Of a DNA stretch of 64,000 bases, positions 238 to 58,119 are shown in pieces (position 1 is the first letter of the stretch; every line of letters starts with the position of its first letter). Origin of the DNA: an uncultured bacterium (lineage in GTDB: Bacteria; JAHJDO01). The notes below the pieces were generated by a model, which saw only the letters and a list, made by a program, of their open reading frames with translations, was not told the DNA's origin and ran no database searches. Location of the stretch: positions 5,400 to 69,399 of the forward strand of contig CAYTGU010000006.1 in NCBI GenBank assembly GCA_964437505.1, given 5' to 3'. Both the position numbers and the translations under genes were made by a program.

Positions 238-1083
238 ATGAACATCGGGAATATACCTGTTATATCTGTTAAAGGCAGAACTTTGGCAGAGGCATGGGAG
301 AAGGCAGTGCTTGAGACATGGAATAAGGGTTTCCAGATAAAAACAGAATATGATAAAAAAGATGATCCTCCTAGCAGAGATTGTACAATGATAATGGTTG
401 TAGATGATCCCTTTGCTGAGCCGCGAATTCACCGCGCTTTTCCAGCGGGGCTTGAGGAGTTAGAGATCTACCGCCAGGAAGTAATAGAAGGTGTTCATGA
501 TCACTGGATTAGTCCCGAAGAAGGGAAATGGACATACACATATCACAAACGACTTTTTGCGTATGAAACAGAGGGCACAGAGATTAATCAGATAGATTAT
601 ATTGTAAATAAGTTAGCGCAGACTCCCTATAGCCGTAGAGCTCAGGCAATAACATGGAATCCTAAAACCGACCCGCCTACATATGATCCGCCATGTCTTC
701 AAAGATGCTGGTTTAGACTTTCAAGAAATGAGCATAAGAGATTAGTATTGAATATGAATACACATTGGCGTTCAAGAGATGGCTTTAAGGCTGCATTTAT
801 GAACATATTTGCCTTAACTGATCTACAGAAACTGATAGCTGTGCGTATAAGTAAGAAGGTTCATGAACAAGTTGTTGTTGGTAGGTATGCTGACATAACA
901 GACAGTTTTCATATCTATGGTTCGTATTTTAAACAATTTCAGGATTTTTTAAATACTGTAAAGAATCGCAGTTTTCAGGAGAGAACATGGACAAGCGAGT
1001 TCTGCGAGCCGTTCTTTGAAGAAGGAAGAAAAAGGCTTAAAGACGAATTGGATAAAGAGCAGAGTGCCGGAGGCCGGACTTGA
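238..1083 (+). CDS. thyA: Thymidylate synthase, archaeal/methanogen-like ThyA type
   Basis: YTYHKRL, SRRAQAITW, PPCLQ (catalytic Cys), RSRD, FMN, SFHIY motifs. Confidence 0.82.
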   Translation: MNIGNIPVISVKGRTLAEAWEKAVLETWNKGFQIKTEYDKKDDPPSRDCTMIMVVDDPFAEPRIHRAFPAGLEELEIYRQEVIEGVHDHWISPEEGKWTYTYHKRLFAYETEGTEINQIDYIVNKLAQTPYSRRAQAITWNPKTDPPTYDPPCLQRCWFRLSRNEHKRLVLNMNTHWRSRDGFKAAFMNIFALTDLQKLIAVRISKKVHEQVVVGRYADITDSFHIYGSYFKQFQDFLNTVKNRSFQERTWTSEFCEPFFEEGRKRLKDELDKEQSAGGRT

Positions 1084-1149
1084 ACCGGCATGAACTAAAA
1101 GTTCGAGGGATTTTAAGTCCCTTGCGTCTGCCAATTTCGCCACTCCGGC
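1065..1149 (-). tRNA. tRNA-Leu(TAA), CCA not encoded
   Basis: Reverse complement folds: acceptor GCCGGAG/CTCCGGC, anticodon arm AGGGA-CTTAAAA-TCCCT, long variable arm GAAC/GTTC, T arm GCCGG-TTCAAGT-CCGGC. Confidence 0.95.
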
Positions 1150-1158
1150 AGAAGTGTT

Positions 1159-1233
<75 letters not shown>

Positions 1234-15500: not shown

Positions 15501-16067
15501 ATGAAGACGACAGACGACAGACCACAGACGACAGACCACGGTAAAAAACTATGGTCTAAAGTAGGTTTCACCGCTGTTGAGCTTATGATAGTGCTTGCAA
15601 TCATGGGTATTATGCTTGTTGCAGCAGTACCATCATTTGTCCAATTCACAAGAAATTCCAGGATTAAGAGCGGAGCGCAGATGGTTGTTTCCGCTCTTAG
15701 AACTGCGCGCAGTTATGCAATAACAAAAAGAAAAAACTGCATGGTCATTGTAGATACCACAATGAATGCAGTAAAGATCTATGAGAACGATACAGGAACA
15801 CTGAGTAACTGGAAAGTAATGCCAAAGACGATTGTAATTAGTCATGAAATTTCATCCGGATATCATCTTAATGTACCGTATCCTGACGATTCAGCGGCGG
15901 CAAGTGGAAGTTATACGTCAAAACCTACAGTCAAATTCAAACCAACAGGAGGAGCGACTATTGGTGGCACAATTCAGGTTAGTGATGACGATAAGACAAA
16001 TCCTGATACATCCTATATTACATGGACAAACATTACAGGTCGTGTGAGGACATCGCGTACGCCATGA
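15501..16067 (+). CDS. GspH/FimT-like minor pilin with repeat-encoded leader
   Basis: MKTTDDRPQTTDHGKKLWSKVG|FTAVELMIVLAI; L..ARSYAI..R; F.PTG, TGRV at the C-terminus. Confidence 0.85.
   Translation: MKTTDDRPQTTDHGKKLWSKVGFTAVELMIVLAIMGIMLVAAVPSFVQFTRNSRIKSGAQMVVSALRTARSYAITKRKNCMVIVDTTMNAVKIYENDTGTLSNWKVMPKTIVISHEISSGYHLNVPYPDDSAAASGSYTSKPTVKFKPTGGATIGGTIQVSDDDKTNPDTSYITWTNITGRVRTSRTP
15506..15557. repeat. Heptamer array plus one inverted unit inside the pilin leader
   Basis: GACGACA GACGACA GACCACA GACGACA GACCACG, then GTAAAAAAC TATGGTC T. Confidence 0.85.
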
Positions 16068-16539: not shown

Positions 16540-17260
16540 AATAAAAACAGACGACAGACGACAGACCACAGTAAAAAACCATGGTCCATGGTCTATTGTC
16601 CATGGTCTAAAAGGTAGTTCTGCTTTCACATTGATCGAAATGATGATCACAACAGCAGTTTTGGCTTTATTGATAACAGGCATTTATTCTGTTTTTAAAG
16701 GTGGTACCGATTCATGGACAAAGGGTAATGTAAGAATGGAGCGGTATCAGAACGCAAGAGCAATTCTGGGGATGATGTCAAGAGAGATCTCCTGCGCAAT
16801 GGTTAATGAGGCGAGAAAGATATATATGCTGGGAATAAATGACGATGGCACTCGGATAAAAACAGGCAGTAGCAGGGATGAACTGTTTTTTATTGCTCCT
16901 GTACACGAAACCAGTAGTTTGGGAACTGACGAGTCTGATATGTGTGAAATAGGCTACTGGACAAGAGGAGATACCGAGATTATGCGCCATTATACAGCTT
17001 CATCTGTGGATTTTGTTTATAAAAGTGGAGATAATAGCGATTCGCTTGGCGTAAAAGCAACAGATCTTCAATTTTATTATTACTATGACAATAATGATGC
17101 GGATTCTCAGGTAAACTGGGGTTCTAATGATTCGGATGCAGATACCTATTTATATACTTTGCCAAAAAAGATAACAATAGTTCTCAAAACAAGAGATGAA
17201 GAAGCGAGAGAAGATACTCAGACCTTTGAGACCACTGTATTTATGCCGGGAGCGGAATGA
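16529..17260 (+). CDS. GspJ/PilW-like minor pilin with repeat-encoded leader
   Basis: MLSEIKTDDRRQTTVKNHGPWSIVHGLKGSSA|FTLIEMMIT; AR.IL.MMSREIS.A. Confidence 0.85.
   Translation: MLSEIKTDDRRQTTVKNHGPWSIVHGLKGSSAFTLIEMMITTAVLALLITGIYSVFKGGTDSWTKGNVRMERYQNARAILGMMSREISCAMVNEARKIYMLGINDDGTRIKTGSSRDELFFIAPVHETSSLGTDESDMCEIGYWTRGDTEIMRHYTASSVDFVYKSGDNSDSLGVKATDLQFYYYYDNNDADSQVNWGSNDSDADTYLYTLPKKITIVLKTRDEEAREDTQTFETTVFMPGAE
16550..16608. repeat. Heptamer inverted-repeat hairpin inside the pilin leader
   Basis: GACGACA GACGACA GACCACA GTAAAAAAC CATGGTC CATGGTC TATTGTC CATGGTC T. Confidence 0.85.
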
Positions 17261-20211
17261 AAATCAAAAATCAATCTGGTATTGCTCTAATAATAGTTGT
17301 CTCCATTATGGCTGTTCTTGCCTCTATTGCTGCTGCTTTTTCATACAGCATGATAATGGACCAGCGCGCAGCAGCCAATTATATGAACGGGATAAAAGCG
17401 GACTATGTTGCAAAAGCAGGCATTCAGCACGCAATTGGCGTTCTAAAGAAGGATGGTGACCCGTCCAATAACGAATCAGGTGATTACTGTATGTATGAAG
17501 GATATGACTGGTATGGTGATGACTGGGGATATGATAGCACTTTGTTTGGAGGAGATACTGGTGGCGATGATTCAAATATAGATAACGATAGCTCTACTCT
17601 GACTCAGACTTCTGGATGTGGCAGTGGTTATGATTCTCGATGGGTATATCTGACAGATTCACAGGGGAAACTGATTGGAAGATACGCTGTTCTGGTTATT
17701 GATGAATCTGGCAAGGTAAATATAAATAGCGCAGGCGCAGGGCTCACATATGGGAACGAAGGCTGGACAACTGCTGAGATAAATCTTGGGCAGGTTTGCA
17801 GCGATATACTCTCCGATCAATCAAAGGCAGCAGATATCTTAAATATAATATACGGAACAGACGGTTGTTCCGGAATTGCTGATCATGATGACAATGCTGA
17901 CAGTGTCATCCTTAATAATGACGGAATAGATAATGATGGAGATGGAACAGCTGACGAAGGAGATGAGGGAGTAGATGATTCCGCAGAGTTTTATATTGCC
18001 AGGCCATACACTGCTTCCAGCGGTCTAAACGCTGATACGCCTTTTGTAACGATTGGGGAAGTCGTGTCTCTTGCCGGATTGAACAATTCAGATTATCAGT
18101 CATTATCTCCATATATCACAGCTTTTTCCTCTGACAAAAACCTCACGGATTCAGGGTTGGCACGGCTGAATATCAACGCTGTAAGCTCTGCAATGGAGTT
18201 GTATTCAGCTCTAAGGGATGCCTGCGAATATTGGGAAGGGACAGCAGCCTACTCAACAGCAGAGCTTGCTCAGATGGCAGTGAACATAATTGACTACAGA
18301 GACCGCGATAACGGCTCAACGCGAATTGATGTTGAAGATGATGCCGGCACTGTATTTACCCGATACGGCGTTGAAGGCATAAGAATAAATGAGGTAATGG
18401 TAAGGCCTGTGTTTAGGGAGGAAGCACCGGATCCACCCGACAGTAATGAGGGTACTGGCCTTGGATGGGAAGCACCTAATTGGACAAGTTCAGCTGTTGA
18501 TGATAGTGGTATATGGTCTTGGTCTAGTATTCCTGACGGCACATATAAAGTAAAAATTTATGGTTCAGGAAATGTGGATTACTGGATATATCCCAAGGTT
18601 AACGATTCGTGGTCAGGTGTGCATACAAAGGATTTACCTGATATCTCAACAGCAGATACAGTAATAATATCTGGTGGCGCAGGTGTATTTATGCTCAATG
18701 TTCGGGCTAATAATGATGATGATTACTGGTACCGTATTGAACTCTCCCAATCCCCTGACTGCGAGTATGTTGAGCTTGTAAATATTTCCGAAAATGCAAT
18801 TACAATGGACGGATGGCATCTGGAATTTCCAAATGGCCAGGTCGGCACTATTCCAAGCGGGACAAGTATCGCAAGAGGAGATACAGTGGTTCTTGCTATA
18901 GATAAAGACGATACATACGACAATGATGGCATCTGGCAGAATAATGCGGCAAATGGCATCTCTCTTCAAAAGTCAGTTAGCGATGGTCTTTTGGATTCTA
19001 CAACAGGCAAGTTTGATATAAACCAAGTCTATCAGCTCTCTTTTACGAATACGATTGAGGATGATATCCTCTGTGATACGGTTTTAGTAGATAGTCCTCT
19101 GCGTCTTTATGACGGACCCATCGCGCCAACCTCAGGCAATCCCGCGGGCCATATTGTTGATCAGGTTCTATGGGATAGTTCAATAATACAGGATAATGAT
19201 TTTCTCTCTATGGAAAGGAATGACCCGACTTATATGGGAGTAGATGAATTAAATGATTCAGGCATCTTTGACAGCTGGCTTATATGTGCAGATTCGGACA
19301 GAGGAACTCCAACATACGAAAACAACAATAATTCTCCAACTGTAAATATTAAGGTAAAAAACTCTCCATTTGCAAACATAGGGGAGATAGCGGATGTATC
19401 ATTCAGCGGAGAGGAATGGGTGAACATAGGAAATAGTTCACATGGTGAAAATATAATAAGGAATATTGCAGACAGGATCACTGTCTCAGGAAGACGGCTT
19501 GATGCGGAGTTTGGGGTCCATACAGGTTCAAACTGGGACTCTTCTCCAGAGGTAATACCAACATCAGAGGTAGCGCGTTCTACAAATCCCGGAGATCTTT
19601 ACTGGTTCAAGGCAACCGCTTCAGCAAGTTCAACAGAGGACACATGGACATGGTACACAACAATAGACAGATTTGAGGCAGATACATACATCATGTACGT
19701 TTACGGAAGAGAAGGCGGGACAATGAGAGTGAGAGTAGGCAATGATACTGCAATTATTACTCCAAGCTCAGATTATGGTGCTAGGTTTGGGCAGGTTGTT
19801 ATATCAGATACTACTTTGAATGTCGCTCTTCTGTCTCCAGATGTTAGTTCAGACTCAACATACTTTGATTATATTCTCCTTACACCAGCGTCAAAGACTT
19901 ATGGAAGATTGAATATAAATACAGCTGGCTATACTGTTCTTCAGTCACTTAAGGGAATAGGGACTGATACAGCAGAGAAGATTACGGCTGATACTCCATT
20001 TCGTAGTATTGGGGAGCTTGTTACTGCTCCAACAGCATCTATAGGAACTACGAATTTCCAACCAATTTCAAATCTCATTACAACAAAATCCAATGTATTC
20101 AAGATAATCTGCACAGGCCAGTCAATTCTGGATAAGAATGGTGACGGGACTTTTGATACAGACGACGAGGTGCTCGGGGAGAGGAAGATCACAGTTATTT
20201 ATGAGAGATAA
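17257..20211 (+). CDS. Very large GspK/PilX-like minor pilin (984 aa)
   Basis: MKIKNQSG|IALIIVVSIMAVL (no Glu5, typical of the K/X class); DESGKVNINSA, RLNINA, lamin-tail-like RINEVM...EYVELVN, HhH-like GRLNINTA...LQSLKGIG. Confidence 0.8.
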   Translation: MKIKNQSGIALIIVVSIMAVLASIAAAFSYSMIMDQRAAANYMNGIKADYVAKAGIQHAIGVLKKDGDPSNNESGDYCMYEGYDWYGDDWGYDSTLFGGDTGGDDSNIDNDSSTLTQTSGCGSGYDSRWVYLTDSQGKLIGRYAVLVIDESGKVNINSAGAGLTYGNEGWTTAEINLGQVCSDILSDQSKAADILNIIYGTDGCSGIADHDDNADSVILNNDGIDNDGDGTADEGDEGVDDSAEFYIARPYTASSGLNADTPFVTIGEVVSLAGLNNSDYQSLSPYITAFSSDKNLTDSGLARLNINAVSSAMELYSALRDACEYWEGTAAYSTAELAQMAVNIIDYRDRDNGSTRIDVEDDAGTVFTRYGVEGIRINEVMVRPVFREEAPDPPDSNEGTGLGWEAPNWTSSAVDDSGIWSWSSIPDGTYKVKIYGSGNVDYWIYPKVNDSWSGVHTKDLPDISTADTVIISGGAGVFMLNVRANNDDDYWYRIELSQSPDCEYVELVNISENAITMDGWHLEFPNGQVGTIPSGTSIARGDTVVLAIDKDDTYDNDGIWQNNAANGISLQKSVSDGLLDSTTGKFDINQVYQLSFTNTIEDDILCDTVLVDSPLRLYDGPIAPTSGNPAGHIVDQVLWDSSIIQDNDFLSMERNDPTYMGVDELNDSGIFDSWLICADSDRGTPTYENNNNSPTVNIKVKNSPFANIGEIADVSFSGEEWVNIGNSSHGENIIRNIADRITVSGRRLDAEFGVHTGSNWDSSPEVIPTSEVARSTNPGDLYWFKATASASSTEDTWTWYTTIDRFEADTYIMYVYGREGGTMRVRVGNDTAIITPSSDYGARFGQVVISDTTLNVALLSPDVSSDSTYFDYILLTPASKTYGRLNINTAGYTVLQSLKGIGTDTAEKITADTPFRSIGELVTAPTASIGTTNFQPISNLITTKSNVFKIICTGQSILDKNGDGTFDTDDEVLGERKITVIYER

Positions 20212-20220
20212 TGGGAAAAC

Positions 20221-20686
20221 AATTTCTAATTTCCAATTTTAAATTATTAATCAAGTCTTTAATGCTTTAATTTTTAATTATGAATTATGATCTAGAAGAA
20301 AGAACAGCGAAATTTGGGGAAAAGATTATTATGCTTTCGAAAAAAATTCCTCAAAGTACAATAACTTCGCCTATTACTTCTCAATTGATAAGATCAGGCA
20401 CAAGTCCTGGAGCAAACTACTGCGAAGCAACAGGTGCAAGTTCAAAGAAAGACTTTAAAAACAAGATACATATTTGTAAAAAAGAAATTCAAGAGACAAA
20501 GTACTGGTTAAGAATGCTGACGATAGCTTATCCTGAGGTTAAAGGTGAAGCAAGAAAATTATGGAAAGAAGCGCAGGAGTTAACATTGATATTTGCAAAG
20601 ATTATCTCAACTCTGGATAAGAGAAAATAAATAGAAATTATAAAATTAGTAATTGATTGAAAATTAGAAATTTAAAATTAATAATT
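20221..20686. other. Four-helix-bundle cassette bounded by 34-bp imperfect inverted heptamer arms
   Basis: Left 20221-20254 AATTTCT AATTTCC AATTTTA AATTATT AATCAA; reverse complement of right 20653-20686 AATTATT AATTTTA AATTTCT AATTTTC AATCAA (26/34 identical, though very AT-rich). Confidence 0.65.
20280..20630 (+). CDS. Four helix bundle protein (23S rRNA IVP / bAvd-like, TIGR02436 type)
   Basis: YDLEERT.KF, SQLIRSGTSPGANYCEA..A.SKKDF.NKI.ICKKE..ET.YWL, EA.EL..IF. Confidence 0.9.
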   Translation: MNYDLEERTAKFGEKIIMLSKKIPQSTITSPITSQLIRSGTSPGANYCEATGASSKKDFKNKIHICKKEIQETKYWLRMLTIAYPEVKGEARKLWKEAQELTLIFAKIISTLDKRK

Positions 20687-20718
20687 CATGTGTAGGGTTA
20701 CGGGTTTTGGAGTTTAGT

Positions 20719-21808
20719 ATGGATCAGTTAAAACACAGATTAAATGTATTGAGAAAGAACCTGGATCACGCAAAGGTGTATCTTTGACTACTCCAAGAAG
20801 ATTGAAGAAATAAAGCAGTTAGAAGAAGAGACTTCAAAGCCGGACTTCTGGACAGATAACAAAAAAGCCACAGGTATCATAAAACAGATCAAAATCCTAA
20901 AAGATATTATCACGCCTCTTAATAACCTTGTCAAAGAAACAAATAATGCGTTAGAACTGGTTGAGCTCGCTTTGTCAGAGAAGGATAACTCAATCTCTTC
21001 TGAAATTGCCGCAGAGCTTGAGAAGCTGGAAGAAGAGTATAAAAGTTTTGAATTAAAATTAACTTTAAGCGGAGAGTATGACGGAAATAATGCTATTATG
21101 ACCATTCATTCAGGCGCAGGAGGAACAGAAGCGTGCGATTGGGTAGAGATGCTGCTGAAAATGTATGTCAAGTGGGCGGAGAAAAGAGGTTTTAAAACGG
21201 AAATCGCAGATATTCTGGCTGGTGAAGAAGCTGGTATAAAAACCGTGACAATTATGATTAAGGGTGATTATGCGTACGGCTATCTGCGTTCTGAAATAGG
21301 TGTACACAGACTTGTAAGAATATCTCCGTTTGATGCGAATAAAAGAAGACATACCTCATTCTGTTCAGTTGATGTGATTGCAGAAGTGGAGGACGAGGCT
21401 GATGTTGAGATCAAGGAAGATGACCTGAGAATTGATACTTACCGCGCAAGCGGTCATGGAGGACAGCATATCAATACCACTGACTCTGCTGTGCGTATAA
21501 CACATCTGCCTACAGGCATAGTTACTCAATGTCAGAATGAACGCTCTCAGCTCAAAAACAAGTCAACGGCAATGAAGGTTCTGAAAGCCAGGCTGGTTGA
21601 ACACCGCATGCGAAAGAAGGAAGAAGAGATGCAGAAATACAATAAAGATAAGAAGAAGATAGAATGGGGCTCCCAGATTCGTTCTTATGTATTTCAGCCG
21701 TATACACTTGTTAAGGATCATAGGACAGGCGCTGAAGTAGGAAATATTCAGGCGGTCATGGATGGGGATATAGACAAGTTTATAGAAGCATTCTTAAAGA
21801 TAAAGTAG
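20719..21808 (+). CDS. prfB: Peptide chain release factor 2, +1 programmed frameshift (about 362 aa)
   Basis: ORF1 from ATG 20719 to CTT TGA C (20782-20788); the +1 frame from GAC 20786 runs into the track ORF at 20972; VRISPFD (SPF) and GGQ present. Confidence 0.95.
20773..20788 (+). promoter_or_regulatory. prfB autoregulatory frameshift site
   Basis: Internal SD-like AGGTG, TAT, then CTT TGA C. Confidence 0.93.
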
Positions 21809-50679: not shown

Positions 50680-50752
50680 GGGGCAGTAGCTCAGTTGGGA
50701 GAGCATCACGTTCGCAACGTGGGGGTCGAGGGTTCAAATCCCTTCTGCTCCA
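50680..50752 (+). tRNA. tRNA-Ala(CGC), CCA not encoded
   Basis: GGGGCAG/CTGCTCC acceptor with G3:U70; anticodon arm TCACG-TTCGCAA-CGTGG; T arm GAGGG-TTCAAAT-CCCTT. Confidence 0.93.
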
Positions 50753-55432: not shown

Positions 55433-56290
55433 ATGAAAAACACAAAACAGGTTAGTAAATTTGTTATTTACAATTTATTACTTGTTGCTGTTTTCTTACC
55501 ACTGTTCACTTGCTCTGCCTTTGCGGAGAGCAGTGCAGGTGTAGTGAAAAAGGCTAATAAGCTGTATAAAAACAAAAAATACGACGAGGCGTTAAAGGAA
55601 TACGACAGGGCATTAACAAAATCTCCGGATTCTGCAGTTGTGAATTTCGATATAGGCGCAGCTCAGTATAAAAAAGGTGATTTTGAGAAGGCGCTTGGCT
55701 CCTTTACAAAAGCATTAATATCAGAAGACGGGAAACTTGAATCTAAGACAAATTACAATATTGGAAACAGTAAATATAAACAGGGGGTACTTAAGGAAAA
55801 TACCGATCTGTCTTCTGCTATAAGTTTATTAAAAGACTCGCTTGCCTATTATAAGAGAGTGATAGAACTGGATGAAAAGAATAAGGATGCTAAATTCAAT
55901 CATAGATTTGTGGAAAAGAAACTAAAAGAATTGTTGGATAAACAGAAAAAACAGCAAAAACAAGACGATAAAGAAGATAAAGAGAAAAACCAGAAGGATA
56001 AGCAAGAACAGCAAAAGCAGAATAAGCAGCAATCCGAAAATAAAAAGCAAAAGAGCAAAGAAGAAAAAGAGTCTGGTTCTAATAATGAGAAAAGAAAGCA
56101 AGAACAAACAGGAAAGGAACAGAAACAGGGCAGTGAATCTCAAAAACAAAAAGCTGAAAAGTCTAAAGAAATGTCTGAGAAGGAAGCAAAGATGCTTTTA
56201 GAGGGGTACAGGCATGAAGAGGAATTAAAAGATAAACTCAAAAAAATAAAACAACAGGGTCATTATCCTGAAGTGTTAAAGGACTGGTGA
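55433..56290 (+). CDS. batC: TPR protein BatC with Q/K/E-rich linker
   Basis: TPRs (A...Y..AL, YN.GN..Y), low-complexity region, C-terminal KDW. Confidence 0.82.
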   Translation: MKNTKQVSKFVIYNLLLVAVFLPLFTCSAFAESSAGVVKKANKLYKNKKYDEALKEYDRALTKSPDSAVVNFDIGAAQYKKGDFEKALGSFTKALISEDGKLESKTNYNIGNSKYKQGVLKENTDLSSAISLLKDSLAYYKRVIELDEKNKDAKFNHRFVEKKLKELLDKQKKQQKQDDKEDKEKNQKDKQEQQKQNKQQSENKKQKSKEEKESGSNNEKRKQEQTGKEQKQGSESQKQKAEKSKEMSEKEAKMLLEGYRHEEELKDKLKKIKQQGHYPEVLKDW

Positions 56291-58119
56291 TGGAACAGAG
56301 AACAGAGAACAGATCACAGATCACAAGTCTTAAATTAAGGGCTAATTTGCTTTTTGTTTTTTTGTCTGTCGTCTATTGTCTATCGTCTGTTATCTGCTTT
56401 GCAAAGGATATAAGATTTGAAGCTTCTGTTGACAGAAACAAGGTTTCTTTGGGCAGCGCTATCACTCTCAATCTTACTTTTTACGGCACTCGGGGTATGT
56501 CTGCGCCAAAACTTCCTAAAATAGATGGATTTCAATCCCGATATAAAGGACCTTCAACAAGAATGTCGATGGTCAACGGAAAGGTTTCCAGTTCGATAAC
56601 ACATATATATACGCTTATTCCTATGCGTGTCGGAAAATTCAGAATTGGTCCTTTATCGTTCAAATATAAGAAAAAGTCTTATACTTCGAAAGAGATAACT
56701 ATTGAGGTTGTAGAGAGCGATGTTAATGAGCCTGAGGGGACGCAGTCCCTTTCCAGAAAAGCATCTTTGGGCGATAATGTTTTTTTAAAGATGTATGTTC
56801 CGAAGCAGGATGTATATTTAAACCAGATTGTTCCCTTAACCATAAAACTGTATGTCACGAGACTTACACTAAGAGATATAGAATATCCGGTATTTTCGCA
56901 TAACGGCTTCTCAGTAGACAAGTTTGCCAAGCCGGCGCAATACAGGGAAATTTTAAACGGCAAGGAATATGAGGTAATAGAATTCAAAACAAATATTTTC
57001 GGGATAAGGACAGCTAAACTGGCGTTAGGACCTGCGCAGCTTAAATGCAATCTACTTGTTAATCGGAGAAGACAGAGAAACTATTCTATGTTTGATAGCT
57101 TTTTTGGAGAGAGAGAGATTTATCCTCTGAGTTTAAAGTCTAAGGAGATCCAAATAACGGTCAATGATCTTCCTGAAGAGGGGAAGCCTGAAGGTTTCAG
57201 CGGAGCTGTTGGAGACTTTACGTTTGATTTAAAAGCTGAGCCAAAAGAAGTTAATGTCGGGGATCCGATCACACTGAAGATGGTTATAAAAGGCAGAGGC
57301 AATTTCGCGACAGTAACCTGCCCAAAACTTGACTCTAACCAGCACTTCAAGATTTATGATCCTGAAGTAAAACAAGAAGATGGAGTAAAAACATTTGAGC
57401 AGATATTAATGCCTGATACAGATACTGTAAAAGAAATCCCCGAAATTACATTCAGCTGTTTTGACACAGAAAGAAAGGCTTACCGCACAATATCAAAAGG
57501 GCCTGTTCCAATAAAAGTAACAAAATCTAAGAAGGAAGATGGGTTAAGAATAGTAGAGTCTTCTCAAACTGCTCTGAGGTATGTTAAAAGGGAAACATTA
57601 GGCAGAGATATTGTATATATTAAGGATGAACCTGGTAAACTGATAAGAAAACAGACGTATCTTTACAAAAACAGGACGTTTTTGGCCGTTCAGATACTGC
57701 CGTTTATTATATTTATATTGCTGTCTGTTATTCACAAACGAACTGAAAAATTGAGAACAGATCTGCGATATGCTCGGAATTTGCGCGCATACAAAAAGGC
57801 GAAACGCGGAATTAAGAAAGCAAAGCATCTTCTTAGCAGTGAAAAGACACAGGAATTTTATGATTGCATATTAAAAACATTAAAGGAATATCTGGGGAAT
57901 AAACTGCATATTACCCATGGTGGAATAACCTCGGATATTGTTGACGGAGTTTTAAGACATAAAGCAATAAATAAAGAGGTATTAAAAACTTTGGATGATA
58001 TTTTTAAGGAGTGCGATATTACAAGATACGCTCTTTTGGAACGCAGCAGTAAAGAAACGAATAGCCTCTTTTGGAAAGTCAAAAAAGTTATTAAGCTTCT
58101 GGAGAAAGAAAGACTATGA
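56287..58119 (+). CDS. batD: BatD family protein
   Basis: ASVDR..V.LG, S.VNG, P.F.GAVG.F, .G.GN, F..YDP; position in the Bat operon. Confidence 0.85.
   Translation: MMEQRTENRSQITSLKLRANLLFVFLSVVYCLSSVICFAKDIRFEASVDRNKVSLGSAITLNLTFYGTRGMSAPKLPKIDGFQSRYKGPSTRMSMVNGKVSSSITHIYTLIPMRVGKFRIGPLSFKYKKKSYTSKEITIEVVESDVNEPEGTQSLSRKASLGDNVFLKMYVPKQDVYLNQIVPLTIKLYVTRLTLRDIEYPVFSHNGFSVDKFAKPAQYREILNGKEYEVIEFKTNIFGIRTAKLALGPAQLKCNLLVNRRRQRNYSMFDSFFGEREIYPLSLKSKEIQITVNDLPEEGKPEGFSGAVGDFTFDLKAEPKEVNVGDPITLKMVIKGRGNFATVTCPKLDSNQHFKIYDPEVKQEDGVKTFEQILMPDTDTVKEIPEITFSCFDTERKAYRTISKGPVPIKVTKSKKEDGLRIVESSQTALRYVKRETLGRDIVYIKDEPGKLIRKQTYLYKNRTFLAVQILPFIIFILLSVIHKRTEKLRTDLRYARNLRAYKKAKRGIKKAKHLLSSEKTQEFYDCILKTLKEYLGNKLHITHGGITSDIVDGVLRHKAINKEVLKTLDDIFKECDITRYALLERSSKETNSLFWKVKKVIKLLEKERL
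56293..56396. repeat. Heptamer inverted-repeat pair inside the BatD signal peptide
   Basis: GAACAGA x3, TCACAGA, TCACAAG ... TCTGTCG TCTATTG TCTATCG TCTGTTA TCTG; the right arm's reverse complement contains GACGACAGA as in the pilin leaders. Confidence 0.75.

Follow-up and report, generated by a model that had tools for sequence, protein, structure and literature searches.

Our analysis of a 64-kb stretch of an uncultured bacterium (64,000 nucleotides of contig CAYTGU010000006.1, positions 5,400 to 69,399; hereafter the window) points to a small gene cassette at 20221-20686, lodged between the last gene of a pilin cluster, which is gspK-like, and prfB, which encodes release factor 2. We consider it probable that this cassette is a horizontally spread unit in which a promoter-less gene of the S23p/IVP family lies between inverted arrays of 7-nt repeats (heptamers), is expressed by read-through of the host operon, and is recognised by means of the hairpin that its arms can form. 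It would be the counterpart, in a protein operon, of the intervening sequences (IVSs) of 23S rRNA that carry an open reading frame (ORF) and of the cyanobacterial hairpins of the short tandemly repeated repetitive (STRR) type. The original prediction, made from the letters of this DNA, had offered as one option that the arms are the terminal inverted repeats of a mobile cassette of roughly 470 bp. This option is now well supported: the site is empty in relatives, related cassettes occur in about 100 other contexts, and the limits found there coincide with 20221 and 20686.

The cassette was inserted into a spacer of 6 nt that separates gspK from prfB. Three relatives (L093, L102 and L103) pass from the stop codon of the gspK-like gene to the ATG of prfB through these 6 nt (TAG-gcattg-ATG), against 507 nt at the same place in the window, and one contig from the same salt-lake community joins position 20204 to 20719 through the same gcattg spacer. 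The original prediction had proposed looking for relatives that join gspK directly to prfB, and these sequences do. It had also held that a gene conserved in place without arms would speak against it; no relative keeps the gene without the arms. The DapA proteins of L102 and L103 are 89% identical to that of the window, and that of L093 probably 96%. The host DapA is 66-67% identical to those of Omnitrophica metagenome-assembled genomes (MAGs), with a graded series of relatives at 85-99%, and the host bacterium appears to be near the Omnitrophota.

The gspK-prfB junction is a hot spot for small selfish genes. Two further relatives of the host have at this junction a hairpin of about 110 nt with arms of GGATTAA heptamers (L098 2114-2228 and L100 2014-2141; fold z -2.0). 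The last 13 nt before the prfB ATG (ttttggagtttag) are common to these loci and the window, and the window cassette may sit in, or have replaced part of, a hairpin element of this type. Another locus (L094, 353-1061) carries a nucleotidyltransferase (PF01909) and HEPN (PF05168) pair after the same gspK-like gene. In L009 (about 930-1029) the cassette is followed, in place of prfB, by a gene starting MSLTKINERGQLTIP, which by eye we take to be AbrB/MazE-like.

The same kind of cassette recurs at many unrelated sites. Databases contain 7,687 relatives of the encoded protein at E <= 1e-5; the best, with 67-85% identity, belong to Patescibacteria (Falkow-, Moran-, Giovannoni- and Parcubacteria) and even to one Bathyarchaeia MAG. 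From 160 relatives found, 80 loci were fetched from species-representative genomes. The proteins of the 80 loci are 59-83% identical and belong mostly to Patescibacteria MAGs, the others to Omnitrophota, Bathyarchaeia and other MAGs. Nearly all these loci have an upstream AATTTYN array that ends in AATCAAT or AAACAAT and, downstream, its reverse complement; typical arm positions are about -50 to -5 relative to the ATG and +1 to about +55 relative to the stop codon. Set against controls at random positions, the flanking inverted repeat lies above their 99th percentile in 96% of 85 cassettes. Median gaps to the genes on either side are about 55-63 nt, which leave space for little beyond the arms, and the neighbours belong to about 100 families, such as glycosyltransferases, pilins, aminoacyl-tRNA synthetases, GAPDH and ribosomal protein S2. 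Cassettes share the orientation of the upstream gene in 74 of 83 cases and that of the downstream gene in 73 of 83 (88-89%), and several loci hold two copies. In one Omnitrophota MAG (L038 3001-3267, 83% identical over residues 27-115) the ORF has lost its 5' part and both arms are kept, as in a decaying cassette.

These copies fix the limits of the unit. Similarity to cassettes in other contexts (L011, L012 and L038) begins at AATTTCT (20221) and ends at AATAATT (20686), and metagenome contigs with other flanks match from 20216-20221, mostly from exactly 20221, and stop at 20686. Arms and ORF are inherited together as one unit. Arm match scores had a median of 41 within the same element, 30 between different elements and 14 for random sequence (p 1e-14), and arm similarity follows ORF similarity (Spearman 0.32, with 0 of 300 permutations as high). 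The number of heptamers per array ranges from 3 to 13; five phased units are the commonest upstream (36 of 86); downstream, it is four units and one of the TTGATT type. As a comparison between the window and L009 shows, whole units are gained, lost and reshuffled in the evolution of the arms.

The cassette and both flanking host genes lie on the + strand, and their parts in the window are the following.

20221..20686, + strand: whole cassette of 466 bp (left arm, leader, four-helix-bundle ORF, trailer, right arm), with limits taken from the copies in other contexts
20221..20254, + strand: left arm, AATTTCT AATTTCC AATTTTA AATTATT AATCAA, that is, four AATTNNN units and AATCAA
20255..20279, + strand: leader to the ATG, with more period-7 TAAT/AATT units, nearly identical in L009 and L011
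20280..20630, + strand: ORF of 116 aa, a four-helix-bundle protein of the S23p/IVP family (PF05635, TIGR02436, AlphaFold2 model)
20631..20652, + strand: trailer past the stop codon, with AATT-type period-7 units that pair with the leader in the predicted fold
20653..20686, + strand: right arm, TTGATT GAAAATT AGAAATT TAAAATT AATAATT, that is, TTGATT and four NNNAATT units, the left arm mirrored
20212..20220, + strand: left junction, the 9 nt (tgggaaaac) from the gspK-like stop codon to the cassette, without counterpart in the empty-site relatives
20687..20718, + strand: right junction of 32 nt, with G-rich heptamers GGGTTAC GGGTTTT GGAGTTT (20695-20715) that include GGAG, the prfB ribosome-binding site
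17257..20211, + strand: GspK-like minor pseudopilin of 984 aa, the final gene of the pilin cluster, with lamin-tail and helix-hairpin-helix domains
20719..21808, + strand: prfB (release factor 2); start codon ATG at 20719, +1 frameshift site CTTTGAC at 20782-20788

Re-reading both arms bears out their description in the original prediction (34 bp each, 26/34 complementary, four AATT-NNN heptamers plus AATCAA), and the same is true of the further AATT-type units up to the start codon (20255-20279) and on from the stop codon (20631-20652), and of the four-helix-bundle gene between the pilin cluster and prfB, given the PF05635 and TIGR02436 matches and the GspK-like and prfB neighbours. The 34-nt arms are complementary at 76% of positions, to which G·U pairs in RNA would add two; shifting the register by 14 nt (two units) makes 16 of 17 positions complementary (20221-20237 with 20656-20672). 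They are also 79% similar as direct repeats, AATT being its own complement, so that direct and inverted matches are confounded. Four successive AATTNNN units, with at most one mismatch, are found in the 64 kb only at the two arms, where shuffled sequences lead one to expect 0.03 such matches.

The leader has neither a Shine-Dalgarno-like motif nor a predicted promoter, the promoter scan of the cassette region gave no more matches than expected by chance and none ahead of the ORF, and no terminator was predicted around the cassette. One sigma-70-like match (TTGAAA-17-AATAAT, 20657-20685) lies in the right arm and faces prfB, which now has its own GGAG at 20709-20712, 6 nt ahead of the ATG. Comparison of Shine-Dalgarno motifs across the family (1 of 86 cassettes against 14 of 144 crude neighbour starts) is uninformative. 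Rfam models matched nothing in 20100-20800 and, in the whole window, only three tRNAs and no rRNA; the tRNA genes lie at 1065-1233 (- strand) and 50680-50752 (+ strand).

Some features of the surroundings deserve mention. The GspK-like pseudopilin is unusually long (984 aa, and 1008-1028 aa in relatives), has a lamin-tail match (PF00932) just below the cut-off and contains a helix-hairpin-helix motif. From the pilin cluster to dapB, the annotation lies wholly on the + strand, and GC skew is positive in each 2-kb bin over all 64 kb.

The protein clearly belongs to a known family. It matches PF05635 ('23S rRNA-intervening sequence protein') with 54.8 bits (cut-off 33.8, E 1.2e-14) and TIGR02436 ('four helix bundle protein') with 78.8 bits (cut-off 24, E 3.1e-22). 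The signature Q35, R38, T41, S42, G44, A45, N46, E69, E72 and W76 is kept even in members that are 29-38% identical. The AlphaFold2 model of the monomer (predicted local distance difference test score, pLDDT, 95.9) has helices at 5-21, 29-51, 56-83 and 85-114, which form an up-down four-helix bundle like those of 2RLD and 2GSC. Foldseek searches with this model retrieved 2RLD (E 3e-6, TM 0.79-0.84) and 2GSC (TM 0.82-0.84), followed by 4DWL, the accessory protein Avd of a diversity-generating retroelement (DGR). The PDB entries 2RLD, 2GSC and 4DWL have five chains each. We know of no catalytic motif in the four-helix-bundle family. Searches with PADLOC and PHROGs gave no match, no relatives were found among viral contigs, and the phage collection gave two partial matches only. 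The ORFs of the window and L009 differ at 24 nt, all of them synonymous (24/24), which shows that the cassette protein is under purifying selection. The family member Xcc0516 is a homopentamer (PMC4990558).

The same arms also occur around no gene at all. By a strict count, 13 of 79 loci contain 17 ORF-less hairpins with these arms, of median length 110 bp and with a loop of 20-60 nt. Examples, all in loci of Patescibacteria MAGs, are the following.

L088 1334-1443 and 4686-4798: ORF-less AATT-arm hairpins, near-identical copies 3.3 kb apart
L015 2244-2360, L067 2275-2412 and L073 4035-4165: ORF-less AATT-arm hairpins in loci of Patescibacteria MAGs
L045 2543-2921: ORF-less AATT-arm hairpins, repeated copies within a few kb

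The 64-kb window has no ORF-less hairpin of the AATT type. In two sequencing runs (X25 and X21) the arm sequences, at 20233-20306 and 20640-20676, had 10-50 times the assembler depth of the ORF and of the host genes (for example 2344 against 70-130 in X25, a run of uncertain type). Because of this excess, arm-like sequence must be far commoner than this gene in the two communities. In some metagenome contigs only 19-38 nt lie between leader and trailer; these contigs are short and serve as supporting evidence only.

Heptamer arrays accompany much more distant members of the family. We took eleven members that are 29-38% identical, from plasmids of cultured Cyanobacteria, Chloroflexota and Bacteroidota. 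A lag of 7 was the best repeat period on both flanks in 70 of 85 close and 10 of 11 distant members, against 2 of 127 and 2 of 48 controls, and on at least one flank in all 11 distant members. The heptamers themselves vary. In Planktothrix the flanks of the member consist of (AATCCCC)6 (AATCGTA)4 and its reverse complement; CCCCAAT is STRR1. Other units are GTCGGAG in Nostoc punctiforme, AGTAAAA in Nostoc and Anabaena, AATTCAA in N. flagelliforme, CACTGGT in Euhalothece, ATTTTAG in Gloeocapsa and ATGAAGG in Chlorohelix, and the arrays of Bernardetia are direct, not inverted. Even the closely aligning Nostocales proteins of L104, L109 and L114 have differing heptamers (AGTAAAA, AATTCAA and GTCGGAG, respectively). 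The plasmid loci with an in-operon gene and 7-nt arrays were L104, L107, L108, L110, L106, L113, L112 and L114. One gene lies ahead of cas1 (Pseudanabaena); the others separate cas2 from cas1 (Nostoc and Anabaena), DrmD from an MmeI-type enzyme (Planktothrix), a helicase from an N6-methylase (Chlorohelix), a DUF1156 protein from a Swt1-HEPN protein (Gloeocapsa), and the adaptor gene of a resistance-nodulation-division (RND) pump from the permease gene (Chondrinema). The distant set includes genes wedged among DISARM or restriction-modification genes. The N. punctiforme member adjoins TnsA and XisH/XisI.

Other heptamer arrays exist in the window. Inverted arrays without an ORF lie at 56291-56400, between the ORF at 55433-56290 and the next gene: (GAACAGA)x3 (TCACAGA)x2, a loop of about 35 nt, and TGTCTGT CGTCTAT TGTCTAT CGTCTGT TATCTGC (RNA fold -27.5 kcal/mol, z -1.2). 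Their unit resembles the GACAGAT heptamer of the Coxiella IVS. Arrays of GACGACA/GACCACA (15503-15560), and of ACAGACG followed by CATGGTC x4 (16545-16610; fold z -3.5), occupy the 5' ends of two pseudopilin genes and share the reading frame of their predicted leader peptides (MKTTDDRPQTTDHG... and MLSEIKTDDRRQTT...), and the GspK homologue of L091 begins ...RQTDRQTDRQ..., the same kind of array. These two arrays could be either unusual pilin leaders or hairpin elements overlapping mis-called starts.

How might such a cassette work? It would be transcribed by read-through from the pilin operon, without a promoter of its own. In a single-stranded form, be it RNA or replicating DNA, the arms would zip into a long A·U or A·T helix that closes exactly around the ORF; in the predicted fold they close right at the ATG and the stop codon. 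The machinery of spreading or processing probably recognises this hairpin and no fixed sequence. A long A·U helix of RNA would suit RNase III well, as in the rRNA IVSs. Looping out of the ORF in RNA, as in 23S rRNA, is thus plausible by analogy, and the complementarity may also be kept at the DNA level, by element copying or by hairpins of single-stranded DNA.

The pairing evidence differs between the family and this copy. A·U pairs are weak, and for this reason raw duplex energies do not tell the arms from random coding flanks; shuffles of the arms themselves were therefore used as the control. Arm-to-arm RNA duplexes across the family then have a median z of -3.8 against dinucleotide shuffles. 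Single arms, each folded alone, are no better than shuffles.

Several results weigh against a mobile cassette recognised by its hairpin. No transposase, integrase or reverse transcriptase recurs among the 146 genes neighbouring related loci, and the cassette has a single ORF. No direct repeat of at least 3 nt spans the ends of the window copy, L011, L012 or L038, where a duplicated AATT or TA would hide inside the arms, and no excision product was found. Because mobility enzyme, target duplication and excision product were not found, we call the cassette mobile only on account of its distribution. Empty and filled sites belong to lineages with differences elsewhere too, with no before/after pair from one strain, and the 64-kb window has one copy. 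As for the hairpin, the arm-to-arm RNA duplex of this copy has -21.7 kcal/mol, against -14.8 +/- 3.9 in dinucleotide shuffles (z -1.76; 7 of 100 did as well), and the arm units of the window are scrambled relative to L009, that is, the arms are degenerate. The original prediction had proposed a comparison with shuffled controls, and its outcome is split: the whole-region RNA fold is no better than shuffles (z +0.35) and the arm duplex is marginal. At mismatched arm positions of 75 loci, G·U (97) is not in excess of A·C (95), so that selection for a sense-strand RNA helix is not visible. The window sequence was found in no RNA run, and that of L024 was absent from the Rifle metatranscriptomes tried. 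The marginal pairing of the window arms is explained by their evolution through gain, loss and reshuffling of units.

The original prediction itself cautioned that AT-richness inflates chance matches, and in the extreme case the arms would be a chance product of AT-rich, low-complexity intergenic DNA, or plain promoter or UP-element sequence. Arms with 91% A+T, a self-complementary AATT and a whole-region fold that shuffles can equal fit this idea, and the caveat holds for the pairing of this copy. It does not hold for the arms as such, which we judge real because related loci share them, and not from folding: in the 64 kb the motif is restricted to this locus, homologous ORFs of 80 loci are flanked by the same arms, and at empty sites arms and ORF are absent together. 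Chance or promoter sequence is thus next to inconceivable as an explanation, and is already refuted by the comparative data. It is also very unlikely that the cassette belongs to a known system that uses this fold or layout. The fold resembles Avd, the ORF is promoter-less, co-oriented and tightly packed as in an integron cassette, and an MNT-HEPN pair occupies the same junction in L094. Yet integron gene cassettes were rejected since the arms stand on both sides of the ORF and there is no integrase or attC in the neighbourhood of the window copy or beside related loci. An accessory gene of a DGR was rejected because the neighbours are pseudopilins and prfB, with no reverse transcriptase among the recurrent neighbour families and no template or variable repeat nearby, and a toxin-antitoxin system for want of a partner gene nearby. 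PADLOC and PHROGs were without match.

Other explanations accept the unit and differ in what the arms do. They could be chiefly an RNA device, with RNase III cutting the stem, which would free the mRNA of the four-helix-bundle gene and split the pilin and prfB messages, spread as DNA being secondary. The anatomy and protein family are those of ORF-bearing IVSs, including the heptamers ahead of the ORF, and in Coxiella RNase III cleaves at the first repeat (PMC4990558). The closing of the fold at ATG and stop codon, the co-orientation of 88-89% of cassettes with their neighbours, the lack of a predicted ORF promoter or terminator, and the family duplex z-scores fit as well. Against this, G·U is no commoner than A·C, this copy pairs marginally, and the arm sequence itself is conserved across hosts (the cross-element median of 30 against 14 for random sequence), not complementarity alone. 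We regard an RNA device as a possible but unlikely primary role. More doubtful still is that the arrays are binding sites of the encoded protein, one five-subunit ring taking 7 nt per subunit, in a two-part system comparable to RAYT and REPIN that regulates, protects or mobilises the cassette and the ORF-less hairpins. Array binding is the obvious hypothesis because the solved relatives are pentameric rings and Avd binds nucleic acid, namely RNA in the DGR ribonucleoprotein. The five chains of 2RLD, 2GSC and Avd would match the commonest upstream array of five units (downstream, four and a TTGATT-type unit), 7-nt arrays lie beside family members in every lineage sampled, and the same loci contain ORF-less hairpins with these very arms. 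But the number of units varies from 3 to 13, the family has no known catalytic motif, and L104, L109 and L114 align closely yet are flanked by unlike heptamers, which argues against sequence-specific reading. The hypothesis is weakened by this variable unit number and these differing heptamers. The favoured reading remains the horizontally spread cassette of the IVS and STRR kind, for which the empty sites, the shared limits and the joint inheritance of arms and ORF argue.

Several known systems resemble the cassette. It has the hallmarks of a miniature inverted-repeat transposable element (MITE), with inverted repeats at the exact limits of the unit, many unrelated sites, and presence or absence between relatives; a matching transposase, expected of MITEs and other elements with terminal inverted repeats, was seen neither in the element nor among the neighbour genes. 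It is best named an IVS-like, STRR-like heptamer-armed cassette, and is not a proven transposon. Like REPINs with their RAYT genes (PMC3116915) and MITE-like palindromes, the family comprises short, multi-copy intergenic hairpins and a protein gene flanked by inverted repeats, and its presence varies. RAYTs were in fact linked to repetitive extragenic palindromic sequences (REPs) by the inverted repeats flanking the RAYT gene. In contrast to the RAYT, an HUH transposase of known chemistry, the cassette encodes a 116-aa bundle without known catalytic motif, and it is the ORF-bearing form itself that is multi-copy and horizontally spread. Correia and enterobacterial repetitive intergenic consensus (ERIC) elements are co-transcribed palindromic repeats, and Correia elements duplicate TA, unlike the cassette, for which no target duplication was seen. 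Avd of DGRs (PDB 4DWL and 8UB7) has the same four-helix-bundle fold (TM ~0.75-0.8), belongs to a pentamer family and binds nucleic acid, but is only 12-17% identical, and no reverse transcriptase, template or variable repeat lies near the cassette gene or its relatives.

A close likeness is to the 23S rRNA IVSs of Coxiella burnetii, Leptospira and Brucella (PMC4990558). The Coxiella IVS has 428 nt, near the 466 bp of the cassette; RNase III cuts its 28-bp terminal stem, and ahead of its S23p ORF stand 3-4 tandem heptamers, whose number differs between strains (PMC4990558). Both have an S23p/IVP ORF inside terminal inverted repeats, heptamers just ahead of it, a poor or absent Shine-Dalgarno motif, and the status of selfish elements. 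Unlike the IVSs, the cassette lies between two protein genes and not in helix 45 or 25 of 23S rRNA, its arms consist wholly of heptamers, and its ORF is under purifying selection, whereas that of Coxiella is decaying; excision by RNase III is proven for the IVSs and is extended to the cassette by analogy only. Not being in rRNA, the cassette is outside the class of rRNA IVSs. STRRs are tandem 7-nt units in cyanobacterial intergenic spacers, able to form hairpins and unexplained in function (PMC2670836). The cassette shares with them tandem intergenic heptamers with the capacity to form hairpins, and the Planktothrix member even has AATCCCC, with other heptamers in the Nostoc, Anabaena, Euhalothece and Gloeocapsa members. 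It differs in that STRRs were described as repeats only, its host is no cyanobacterium, and its unit is AATTNNN. STRR sequences are also reported to occur inside a structural RNA gene, that for RNase P RNA. In the literature searched, we found nothing linking four-helix-bundle genes to heptamer arrays or STRRs beyond the Coxiella IVS.

We can only tentatively propose that IVS proteins and inverted 7-nt arrays are two halves of one undescribed class of hairpin elements, in which the pentamer would bind, protect, process or mobilise the hairpins in the manner of RAYTs and REPINs. The class may extend over Patescibacteria, Omnitrophota, Cyanobacteria, Chloroflexota and Bacteroidota and, in the form of rRNA IVSs, over Proteobacteria and spirochaetes. 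If true, the S23p family and the cyanobacterial STRR repeats would both gain a function. S23p/IVP genes are annotated by thousands without a known function, and rRNA IVSs and STRR heptamers have been unexplained for more than 30 years. The link of one protein family with 7-nt arrays across phyla is the part that most deserves follow-up, and lends itself to tests of whether the pentamer binds the arrays, whether RNase III cuts mRNA arms and so uncouples the pilin genes from prfB, and which enzyme moves the hairpins. For annotation, short AT-rich arms of this kind mark the limits of insertions, and should not be taken for promoters or chance repeats. S23p genes, rRNA IVSs and STRRs share one architecture, a gene or loop inside inverted 7-nt arrays, which spreads as one unit into the operons of widely differing bacteria, Patescibacteria with their small genomes among them.

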